This document shows positions 1 to 3,000 of a stretch of DNA of 64,000 nt, piece after piece. Location: the NCBI GenBank assembly GCA_903856085.1, contig CAIOAT010000037.1, positions 1,249 to 65,248 on the forward strand, in the 5' to 3' direction. The DNA comes from Candidatus Omnitrophota bacterium (GTDB lineage: Bacteria > Omnitrophota > Omnitrophia > Omnitrophales > Aquincolibacteriaceae). The position numbers are program-made. Numbering within the stretch: position 1 is the stretch's first letter; the number at the start of each line of letters is the position of its first letter.

Positions 1-3000
1 CCTTCAGTACTATGGAATGGAACGGTTTCTCTTTCGCCTGAGCAAATCAAAATATTCTGACGCGTTCATACTGAAAGGCGCTCTGATGTTCACCGCTTGG
101 CAGATGCCGGAAAGACGGATAACTCTTGATATTGATCTCCTGGCGCGTCATGCCAATGAAGTCAAAAAAATAGAAGGTGCTATTAAGGATATATGCGCTG
201 TCAAAGTTCCTGCGGACGGACTTGTTTTTAAGTCGGATTCCGTAAGAGGGCGGATCATTAAAGAAGATGCTGAGTATGAAGGCGTGCGTATTAAACTCAT
301 GGGTTATCTTGAGCGGTCAAGAATTCCGATGCAGATTGATTTTGGTTTTGGCGATGTTGTTTTTCCTTCCGCGCAAAAGATCAAGTATCCGGTTATGCTT
401 GATTTCCCGGCCCCCGAGCTAAAAGGTTATACGCCGGAAAGTATGGTTTCTGAAAAGTTCGAAGCAATGGTCAAATTGGGTGACCTTAATAGTCGAATGA
501 AAGATTTTTATGATATCTGGAGCATGATGCGGCAATTTGACGTTGAAGGGGGAACGCTTGTGCAGGCCATTCAGAAAACTTTCAAGCACCGTAAAACGAC
601 ACTGCCAGAGGCAGTGCCTTTTTTCTCTTCGGCTATCTACGATGAGCACTCCGTGAATAACACAAGATGGAAAGCCTTTCTTTCGACCATTCAGATCAAT
701 AATGCCCCAACCGACCTTGGAATCGTTGCCCAAGCCATTGAGAACTTTCTTCTTGAGCCAGTCAAAGCAATCCATGGCGGGCATGATTTTCTGGCTCATT
801 GGCATGTTCCAGGTCCTTGGCGTTACTTAGGTTCAGAGGGCTCATGAGAACATTAGTTGTCGGAGATATCCACGGTGCATTCAAAGCACTTCTCCAATGT
901 TTCAAACGGGCGGAATTTGATTATGATCGTGACCGTTTAATTGTTCTGGGGGATGTGTGCGACGGATATCCCGAGGTGCGTCAATGTATCGATGAGCTAT
1001 TAAAGATAAAAACATGCGATTTTATTATCGGCAACCATGATATGTGGGCATTGGATTGGGCTTTGCGGGGTGATAAGCCGGAGATTTGGACGAGCCAAGG
1101 CGGAAGAAATACAATGCGTTCCTATGATGGTGGGCCGATGCCCAAGGAACACATTGATTTCTTGAAAAGTGGACAACTATGGCTCGAGCTGGGAGATCAA
1201 ATATTTGTTCACGGTGGTTTTGATCACGATATGCCATTGTCTAAGAGCAGCTCCGAGACATTGGTTTGGGATCGTGAGCTTCTTGATATTGCCTGGCAGA
1301 AACAGAGTATTGATCCCCAATATAAGTTTGGCCACTATTCCGATATTTTTCTCGGACATACCACGACTCAATTCTATAAAACCCTCAAACCGATAAAAGC
1401 TTGTAATGTTTGGGACCTGGATACGGGTGCTGGATGGTCGGGAAAGTTGACAATTATGGATATCAAGAGGAAGGAATACTGGCAGTCGGATTTATCGCCA
1501 TCCCTTTATGGCGGTAATCCGGACAGGATCGGATAAGGGCTGTTTTCATGTTGCTTTCTCTGCCAATGGTGACATGCGCTAGTGAGAAGTTTAACTTCTA
1601 GTTAATAAGAGTAAAAAGAGCTGAAGCGTTTGAAAAAAAATGATGCGACGGGCAAATGCTGATGAAGTCTTCAGGACCGGTTCAATTCATTGTTATTGTT
1701 GATGTTATGGAAGTGCCATTGTAGAATCCCGTATCCCGCTGATTCTCTTTTTCTGAAATCTCAAGCCAGTCAACGGGTTGCGTCAAACCAGATGTAACCC
1801 GTTTCATTTCCTCGCTTTGCATTCCAAGTCAATCCAAGGCATTCCAAGTCAACACAAGTTGTAAATCTCCGTTTGCGCGGAGTTTAAGTGGCAGAAAAGT
1901 GGCAGGAATTTAGCGAGGCAACCCGCCTCATATCCATAATGTTGCATAACACTAATAAAACGACATTGGCAAAATATTGAACGGTGCTTTTCCAATCTTT
2001 TGCGGCATTCAATTCGGTGGCTGGTAGACAATTATTATAAATCAATCCAGGCGTTGCTGCTGCCGATAATGCTGAAGGCAACCGTTGGGCATTTTATTTG
2101 AGAGCCCTTCCTCAGAAAGCCGCGGCTGGCTATTAGGACATGGTTTCCCCATAAATTCAAAGGCAGTGGATTCTATGATCGAAGACATAGATTTAATGCT
2201 GCGTTTTCAGAACGGCGACGAGAGCTGTTTTGAAGCGCTGGTTGAGCGGCACAAGCAGCGTGTCTTTAATATTACCTACCGATATTTAGGCAATGCCCAT
2301 GATGCCGAAGATGTCGCGCAGCAGGTCTTCATCAATATTTACAACGCAAGGGCATCCTACAAGCCCACGGCGCAATTCACGACCTGGCTCTACACAGTTT
2401 GTAAGAATACCTGCCTCAAAACATTTCGCAAAAAACGTTTTTCTACGGTATCGATAGATGAGGACGTGGAAATGGATGAAAATTCCGCGCCTGTTCAGCT
2501 TCCCGACCCTAAGGCTATGACGCCACTCGACAATGCGCTCGGCCGGGAACAAGAGGCGGTCGTCAAGGAAGCGATAGAGTCTCTTCCCGGAAATCAGAAA
2601 ATGGTTGTCATCTTATACAAATACGAAGAGCTTTCTTACGAAAAGATAGCTGAGGTCACGGGTCTGTCTGTTAAAGCGGTCAAATCATCACTACATAGAG
2701 CCCGGGTAAGTTTAAAGGAGAAGCTGGCGGGATATTTTGATAAATAATGCGGAACTTTTACCTTTTTCAGGGATTTAATAAAGAGAGGTGAACAATATGA
2801 ATTGTCGGGATATAAGGAAATCACTGGTTGGTTTCTTGGAGTCCGAACTATCTGACGGCGATCGGATCGTCGTTGAGGCGCATCTTCATCAGTGCGAAGA
2901 CTGCCGGAAAGAAAAAGTACTACTGGAAGATACTTGGGCAGCATTGGGAGGAATCCGGGCTCCTGCCGTGGGCCAGGACTTTACCGCGAATTTAATGGCG

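Follow-up and report, generated by a model that had tools for sequence, protein, structure and literature searches.

A three-gene AbiE operon in an Omnitrophota bacterium encodes a predicted lambda-type phosphatase that may reactivate a phospho-silenced toxin

At the left edge of a 64,000-nt stretch of DNA from a Candidatus Omnitrophota bacterium (contig CAIOAT010000037.1, positions 1,249–65,248; hereafter, the window), we identified an operon in which the genes for an AbiEi antitoxin and an AbiEii nucleotidyltransferase toxin are followed by a third gene, coding for a metallophosphatase that we refer to as PP. The locus is a three-gene variant of the AbiE (type VII) toxin–antitoxin system, and thus departs from the two-gene composition of the PADLOC models of AbiE, to which it adds PP. 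PP itself is a PPP-family Ser/Thr phosphatase of the lambda-phosphatase/NinI-like type, with its activity predicted, and constitutes a strong candidate for the missing phosphatase that reactivates a silenced toxin. The proposal that PP dephosphorylates phospho-AbiEii, making neutralisation reversible, draws on motifs within the operon and on analogy with homologous systems, and we consider the chances of its being right to be evenly balanced.

Antitoxin-driven covalent neutralisation of the toxin is the defining property of type VII toxin–antitoxin systems, and the characterised relatives of AbiEii extend tRNA 3′ ends with nucleotides and thereby block translation. In Mycobacterium tuberculosis, the DUF1814 toxin TglT/MenT3 is neutralised through phosphorylation of Ser78, and the same study noted that degradation of the antitoxin cannot undo this mark and postulated ‘a currently unidentified phosphatase’ (Yu et al. 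2020; PMC7205606). In Streptococcus agalactiae, binding of AbiEi to AbiEii leads to auto-phosphorylation of the toxin at Thr65, abolishing its nucleotidyltransferase activity; T65A AbiEii escapes neutralisation in vivo, the AbiEi loop D85-E86-I87 is required, the D192A mutant of the toxin is non-toxic, and SaSTP, an unlinked housekeeping PP2C phosphatase, strips the Thr65 phosphate in vitro (bioRxiv 10.64898/2026.01.19.700257). Both studies (PMC7205606; 10.64898/2026.01.19.700257) state that the physiological phosphatase for the phospho-toxin is unknown, and neither mentions one encoded in the operon; such an enzyme is likewise not described in the searchable literature on AbiEii, AbiEi or DUF1814 with phosphatase or metallophosphoesterase.

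The sequence beyond the window edge is available from an identical contig (JGI Ga0114951_10000305; L001), on which window base 1 corresponds to base 1102, so that a window position equals the L001 position minus 1101. Within the window, abiEii occupies positions 2–847 of the forward strand and is 5′-truncated, comprising the 3′ 90% of the gene and encoding residues 31–311 of a 311-aa protein, while its real start lies 88 nt upstream of window base 1 and the full gene spans L001 1013–1948. The initial annotation had placed this open reading frame (ORF) at 17–847; the end was correct, but the ATG at position 17 is the internal Met36, the frame being open to base 2 with no stop between bases 2 and 17. 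The PADLOC AbiEii match spans positions 32–298/299 of the profile, and the gene is therefore cut by the window edge with about 30 N-terminal residues missing. The phosphatase gene (844–1536, forward strand; 230 aa) is coupled to the toxin gene by an ATGA overlap at 844–847 of the same strand, in which the abiEii stop codon (TGA, 845–847) interlocks with the phosphatase start codon (ATG, 844–846), and a GAGGG ribosome-binding site (835–839, forward strand), read from the sequence, is embedded in the 3′ end of abiEii. The coupling of an AbiEii ORF to a complete calcineurin-like phosphoesterase ORF, as originally described, is thereby confirmed.

The initial annotation had also anticipated an AbiEi partner just upstream of the window, and the identical contig L001 shows it there: abiEi (200 aa; L001 414–1016) directly precedes abiEii, and its product matches the PADLOC AbiEi profile over its full length (E 2.9e-70). 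Its TGA overlaps the ATG of abiEii in the same ATGA arrangement, both in L001 and in five other contigs, and a near-consensus promoter, TTGACA-17-TATACT, is found at L001 350–378, 36 nt 5′ of the abiEi start. Taken together, the upstream abiEi, the ATGA coupling and the promoter 5′ of abiEi show that abiEi, abiEii and the phosphatase gene form a single operon. An exact-protein look-up identified 20 contigs with a PP protein identical to that of the window.

The toxin belongs to the DUF1814/AbiEii nucleotidyltransferases and has kept its catalytic motifs intact, matching Pfam AbiEii (PF08843; E 8.9e-40, 137.5 bits against a cut-off of 22.5) and PADLOC AbiEii (PDLC02312; E 2.2e-87), and aligning with the S. 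agalactiae AbiEii structure (PDB 9HLO_B; E 5.8e-25). In this alignment, Thr71 of the sequence RITLDIDL, two residues before the DxD motif, falls on S. agalactiae Thr65 and is thus the predicted phospho-acceptor; the codons of Thr71-Leu-Asp73-Ile-Asp75 are located at 122–136 of the forward strand, with the threonine at 122–124 and the catalytic DxD at 128–136. Likewise, the codons of Asp198-Phe-Tyr-Asp201, part of a KDFYD motif, are found at 503–514 of the same strand, and Asp201 (512–514) corresponds to the S. agalactiae catalytic Asp192. Both Asp198 and Asp201 are invariant in the AbiEii alignment A4. The hG[GS]-type LKGA, D73xD75, K182 and D198/D201 are conserved in alignment A4 as well as in 94 AbiEii relatives, and the acceptor threonine is invariant in 94 of 94 aligned relatives. 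A PDB sequence search with the window toxin returned no MenT chain at E ≤ 1, and NCBIfam gave no match for the AbiEi, AbiEii or NTP_transf_8/AbiEi_2 proteins.

The antitoxin encoded directly upstream in the same operon is a COG5340-type winged-helix AbiEi, which aligns end to end with its S. agalactiae counterpart (PDB 9HLO_A, 6Y8Q; E ~1e-8) and carries a TDEIP loop identical to the essential S. agalactiae loop D85-E86-I87. Hence the features expected of a type VII system, a Ser/Thr beside DxD and an inducing loop in the antitoxin, are both present as sequence conservation only, and all the parts that phospho-silencing is predicted to require are found in the operon.

The closest comparison is with the AbiE systems of S. 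agalactiae and Lactococcus lactis (formerly type IV, now proposed as type VII), in which the same two core genes follow each other in identical order and their frames overlap; the S. agalactiae system further shares the acceptor threonine (T65 versus T71), the catalytic aspartate (D192 versus D201) and the antitoxin TDEIP loop. The coupled third gene for a Ser/Thr phosphatase sets the present operon apart from it; SaSTP, the sole phosphatase tested there, and in vitro only, is unlinked. The MenA3–MenT3 (TakA–TglT) and MenA1–MenT1 systems of M. tuberculosis also involve DUF1814 toxins with antitoxin-induced phosphorylation in the active site (S78 and T39, respectively), and for MenT3 a phosphatase was postulated for reactivation. 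These systems lack an operon phosphatase, only a slow, non-specific PstP activity having been reported, and their toxin is distant from the window AbiEii.

Several lines of evidence identify PP. It matches Pfam Metallophos (PF00149; E 5.9e-13) and PHROG phrog_246, annotated as ‘NinI-like serine-threonine phosphatase’ (E 1.1e-42), and a profile of 24 PP sequences aligns over its full length with the lambda Ser/Thr phosphatase 1G5B (E 1.6e-15; residues 3–208 against 15–217). With these matches, the hidden Markov model (HMM) searches bear out both the DUF1814/AbiEii and the Metallophos assignments made initially. All the expected metal motifs (GDxHG, GDxxD, GNH[DE] and two downstream histidines) are present; GDIHG (862–876), GDVCDG (949–966) and GNHD (1030–1041), all on the forward strand, could be located in the sequence as originally described, together with the GAGGG ribosome-binding site. 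The metal ligands Asp8, His10, Asp37, Asn64, His65, His123 and His172, invariant across 61 sequences of 37–51% identity, align with lambda D20, H22, D49, N75, H76, H139 and H186, and a second phosphate-binding arginine is kept as well (R144, aligned with lambda R162). A Foldseek search with an AlphaFold model of PP ranked 1G5B first, followed at ranks 2–6 by further hits to ApaH and the phosphatase domain of Clostridium thermocellum Pnkp (CthPnkp).

PP thus has size, fold, the seven metal ligands and the Arg144/Arg162 position in common with lambda phosphatase (NinI, 1G5B) and phrog_246. It differs from lambda phosphatase in overall identity (~24%), in having Gly41-Tyr42 (GDVCDGYP) at the place of lambda Arg53, the arginine of the canonical GDxxDRG, and in the family-specific motifs IWTSQGG, GHTTT, DTGAGWSGKLT and YWQSDL; D40, G41 and Y42 are invariant throughout the close PP family. 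ApaH and PrpA/PrpB share the PPP superfamily and the N-terminal motifs with PP, but their NCBIfam scores lie far under the equivalog cut-offs (56.6 against 176 bits for ApaH, over residues 1–135 only; 54.8 against 326 and 34.2 against 332 bits for PrpA/PrpB), and PP therefore belongs to neither family. PADLOC has no match for PP or for the NTP_transf_8-type modules described below. At E ≤ 1e-5, the PP family comprises 3,194 matches, the best 120 of which are 66–95% identical and come mostly from Omnitrophota metagenome-assembled genomes (MAGs).

Among distant PP homologues, some proteins are unusually long, and we considered whether they were Rosetta-stone fusions to a toxin or antitoxin; this was rejected, the extra sequence consisting of inteins or an HNH domain. 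Three of them (P0142, P0234 and P0259; 550–600 aa) are interrupted by inteins with Intein_splicing, Hint and LAGLIDADG domains, which are inserted into the catalytic N-terminal region (following residue ~40 in P0142 and residue ~70 in P0259), and a fourth (P0202) has an N-terminal HNH endonuclease domain. The inteins and the HNH domain suggest a phage or mobile-element lifestyle for the wider family.

The resemblance of PP to ApaH and CthPnkp leaves room for a reading, close to that of the initial annotation, in which PP acts on nucleic acid or nucleotides, be it in repair or as a second antidote that takes off what the toxin has added to tRNA 3′ ends, in RNA-end healing, in Np4N hydrolysis or as a second effector. 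Lambda phosphatase has 2′,3′-cyclic phosphodiesterase activity, and both the fold and the sequence of PP recall ApaH hydrolases of diadenosine tetraphosphate (Ap4A) and the RNA-end-healing Pnkp of C. thermocellum (4J6O, E 0.0011); the sole full-length matches of PP are, however, the lambda Ser/Thr phosphatase and NinI-like phosphatases, and the weak NCBIfam ApaH match mentioned above concerns the N-terminal half, as do the main ApaH matches in the PDB-sequence profile search, which cover residues 1–71 or 1–136 only. The missing arginine of GDxxDRG, which binds phosphoproteins, also speaks for a substrate of this kind. Trimming added nucleotides would call for a 3′-exonuclease activity, of which none is known in the PP subfamily, and the documented regulatory phosphate on the toxin offers a ready-made substrate. 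On balance, we regard action on nucleic acids or nucleotides as rather unlikely.

Dephosphorylation of the toxin would, by comparison with its homologues, complete a closed cycle. Phosphorylation as the antitoxic mechanism and its in vitro reversal by Ser/Thr phosphatases are taken from those homologues, whereas the gene identities, their coupling, the conserved architecture, the kept threonine, the AbiEi loop and the catalytic residues are observed here; phosphorylation of this AbiEii, its dephosphorylation by PP and activation upon loss of AbiEi activity are inferred. AbiEi would bind AbiEii, which would phosphorylate its own Thr71 and thereby be switched off, and PP, translated in step with the toxin, would remove the Thr71 phosphate. 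AbiEi would thus be the inducer of phosphorylation, AbiEii the self-modifying toxin and PP the eraser. As long as AbiEi and nucleoside triphosphates (NTPs) are present, the toxin would be continually re-silenced, whereas a lapse of AbiEi activity, for example upon phage takeover or transcription shut-off, would allow PP to rapidly turn the stock of phospho-toxin active. According to the initial annotation, PP could be an ‘immunity or reset enzyme’ that takes off nucleotidyl/phosphoester adducts made by the nucleotidyltransferase, or a second effector. ‘Reset’ comes close to this scheme, but the sign is probably opposite to ‘immunity’, because the one regulatory covalent adduct known to be made by AbiEii-type toxins is the phosphate on their own Thr65 (10.64898/2026.01.19.700257), the removal of which would reactivate the toxin.

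We surveyed PP loci in one genome per species, obtaining 80 loci, of which five had too little upstream sequence and 75 were informative; flanking genes were found by tblastn, ORF clustering and HMMs built from the clusters. A nucleotidyltransferase toxin gene lies directly upstream on the same strand in 46 of the 75, and this adjacency is far above chance. These comprise 17 loci in which PP is directly preceded by an intact, co-oriented AbiEi and AbiEii pair, 2 with a degraded AbiEii, 1 with a divergent AbiEi/AbiEii pair (L011; Pfam AbiEii E 1.9e-28) and 26 with an NTP_transf_8 protein (PF12281) preceded by AbiEi_2 (PF09952) or by a small protein of ~105 aa. The antitoxin gene alone is retained in 4 further loci, and the remaining 25 have neither toxin nor antitoxin. 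The three-gene variant is therefore conserved and not a one-off, as had been surmised, and phosphoesterase homologues do occur beside DUF1814 genes elsewhere, a full-length coupled PP being found in 18 AbiEii-type loci besides that of the window.

The coupling recurs along with the gene order. In 13 of the 17 intact AbiEii-type loci and in 11 of the 26 NTP_transf_8-type loci, the toxin ORF stops at the position that gives the same 4-nt overlap; the ATGA itself was read in six toxin–PP loci, representing both architectures, and a purine-rich GG(A/G) stretch 5′ of the junction also recurs among related loci of the two architectures. Gene calls made independently and carrying precomputed Pfam hits confirmed the order AbiEi_2, NTP_transf_8, Metallophos in two further homologues, one of them from a Dehalococcoidales MAG. 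Overall, the cassette is spread over several phyla, with examples in Omnitrophota, Bacteroidota, Dehalococcoidales, FCPU426 and ‘proteobacterium’ MAGs.

The NTP_transf_8 proteins (227–271 aa in the 26 loci within L013–L082, and in L195 and L196), together with AbiEi_2 or the unannotated ~105-aa protein, represent a second toxin–antitoxin-like module upstream of the same phosphatase. The NTP_transf_8 and AbiEi_2 pairs, none of which is present in the window, occupy the same position as the AbiE genes and share the ATGA coupling, the Thr-x-Asp-x-Asp motif and a near-identical PP, but beyond the active-site motif have no detectable homology to the window AbiEii. The threonine two residues before DxD is invariant in 24 of 24 NTP_transf_8 toxins upstream of PP. 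A PDB sequence search with two of these toxins yielded nothing meaningful, and hhalign gave a probability of 3% for NTP_transf_8 against AbiEii, with only the hG[GS]...TxDxD motif aligned; the equivalence of the threonines in the two families is therefore motif-level only. Six loci (L010, L039, L055, L015, L057 and L063) are decayed cassettes, in which the toxin is a C-terminal remnant, frameshifted or absent, and the antitoxin and the phosphatase are intact.

Viewed from the side of the toxin, PP turns out to be an accessory. In a reverse survey of the 80 closest AbiEii relatives (47–64% identity; metagenome scan with the AbiEii alignment), 66 of which had enough downstream sequence, PP was present in 2 (L087 and L126), as an N-terminal remnant in 1 (L090) and absent in 63, and in a neighbour-joining tree the PP-linked AbiEii sequences form about five separate clades among PP-less ones. 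PP was therefore gained or lost several times and is not a core component of the AbiE subfamily; the layout implied by the initial annotation is conserved, but the subfamily as a whole does not share the phosphoesterase. In the PP tree, AbiEii-type and NTP_transf_8-type loci are intermingled, even where the phosphatases are almost identical, and DNA similarity between loci of different toxin type starts right at the ribosome-binding site/ATGA junction; PP therefore behaves as a portable module swapped between toxin–antitoxin pairs. Plasmid and phage databases contain only distant homologues (26–41% identity), all of them solo, and annotated phages carry them as solo ‘NinI-like’ genes. The toxin-linked PP clade, cellular and tied to a toxin in one operon, seems to be a cellular branch of a phosphatase family of phage type.

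Such mobility would also fit PP being a passenger, that is, a NinI-like gene of phage origin that landed or was retained behind addictive toxin–antitoxin modules and is functionally unconnected with them. Many of the solo PP loci lie beside mobile-element or defence genes (RhuM, Bro-N, YgjP, PRiA4_ORF3), the PP tree is discordant with the type of upstream module, with a breakpoint that coincides with the PP start, the homologues in phages and viruses stand alone, and most AbiE modules do without PP. A mere passenger would, however, be hard to square with the choice of partner, as the recognised toxin is always of the nucleotidyltransferase type (46 of 75 loci, in three lineages: AbiEii PF08843, the divergent AbiEii of L011, and NTP_transf_8 with AbiEi_2), and no other toxin family was recognised among the annotated genes upstream of PP. 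The recurrence of the 4-nt stop/start overlap in both main architectures tells against it too, as does the finding that PP is better conserved relative to the window copy (66–78% identity) than AbiEii (54–62%) or AbiEi (46–56%), with its catalytic residues invariant. We thus hold the passenger explanation to be decidedly unlikely. That PP, as an independent defence or regulatory function merely co-expressed with AbiE, targets another phosphoprotein, whether by countering a phage or host kinase or by dephosphorylating AbiEi or a translation factor, would suit its generic Ser/Thr phosphatase fold and the toxin-less loci that keep the antitoxin and PP (L010, L015, L039, L057, L063), but it is very improbable given that no kinase gene is consistently present in the PP neighbourhoods and that a specific linkage to phospho-regulated toxins is simpler.

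Several observations nevertheless weigh against dephosphorylation of AbiEii by PP. The AlphaFold model is of moderate quality (predicted local distance difference test score, pLDDT, 75; predicted template modelling score, pTM, 0.78), and, with the GDxxDRG arginine missing, the substrate preference of PP may differ from that of lambda phosphatase. The acceptor threonine fails to discriminate, because it is conserved in PP-less AbiEii systems too. PP is also dispensable for the subfamily, 63 of the 66 close AbiEii relatives lacking it. A third of the informative PP loci (25 of 75) have PP alone, and no AbiE-like neighbours were found beside PP homologues in 28 viral contigs, the neighbourhoods of distant relatives having been sampled from viral homologues only (35–55% identity). 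A toxin activator that is co-translated with its toxin looks risky unless it is weak or regulated.

Direct repeats of 105 nt bracket abiEi, abiEii and the phosphatase gene, with one copy only within the 64-kb window (1811–1915, forward strand), which is 89% identical to the upstream copy found by a repeat search on L001 (125–229). The repeat holds a tandem array of four ~10-mers with CCAAG/CAAG at their ends, as well as a doubled AAGTGGCAG, and may represent either a site of recombination or an operator/promoter region that was duplicated. L003 has an identical cassette but another gene behind it, and its sequence parts from that of L001 just past the downstream repeat copy; the three identical proteins occur with at least three downstream neighbourhoods, namely the ECF sigma/anti-sigma genes of the window, a KAP P-loop NTPase (L003) and BON/CsbD/response-regulator genes. 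The G+C content of the cassette is ~44–45%, against 50–55% further downstream, and no tRNA genes were found near it. The small three-gene cassette looks mobile.

The C-terminal end of an IS3-like transposase (ending in RPHSSLGYRPPAPEAVQ), together with terminal sequence, abuts the cassette upstream in L001 (1–124), L003 (1–120) and L006 (1–60). Relative to the 105-nt repeat, this element lies outside in L001 but inside in L003 and L006, and since its position differs between contigs, the insertion sequence has inserted independently next to the cassette. Other AbiE cassettes with a phosphatase are flanked by direct repeats as well (L008, 4088–4212 and 7590–7714; L030, 3522–3655 and 7237–7370), measuring 125–134 nt and being 82% and 100% identical, respectively, and the repeat of L030 resembles a piece of a GIY-YIG-type gene that was duplicated. 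A shared attachment site was rejected as the origin of the flanking repeats, those of L008 and L030 not being homologous to the repeat of the window locus.

Directly downstream of the cassette, the window encodes an ECF sigma factor (2085–2747), a zf-HC2 anti-sigma factor (2788–3384), a DUF3106 protein with a long Gly/Pro-rich tail (3386–4210) and a Gly/Pro/Asp-rich low-complexity protein (4298–5401). A tRNA gene (14689–14761) is the sole Rfam match in the window at gathering thresholds.

Because a phosphorylated toxin is not freed by degradation of its antitoxin, the firing of AbiEii and MenT systems has lacked an explanation, and the operon described here offers a concrete three-protein system in which to ask how phospho-silenced toxins are reactivated. 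The presence of the same phosphatase behind the NTP_transf_8 family predicts that NTP_transf_8 proteins are phospho-regulated toxins, too. A broader proposal, which we put forward tentatively and hold to be rather unlikely, is that PP is a portable activator of phospho-silenced DUF1814 toxins, a lambda-NinI-type phosphatase of phage ancestry that was repeatedly placed behind nucleotidyltransferase toxins of two or more unrelated families, making out of a two-gene, irreversibly silenced toxin a self-contained three-enzyme phospho-switch that would fire when antitoxin activity or NTP supply lapses. We know of no biological role established for the NinI-like phosphatases encoded by phages, and the toxins described here would be the first group of candidates for physiological substrates of the lambda-phosphatase/NinI family. 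If the broader proposal is true, phage NinI-like phosphatases could trigger AbiE-type systems by dephosphorylating stored toxin, and the toxins would act as guards against phage phosphatases.

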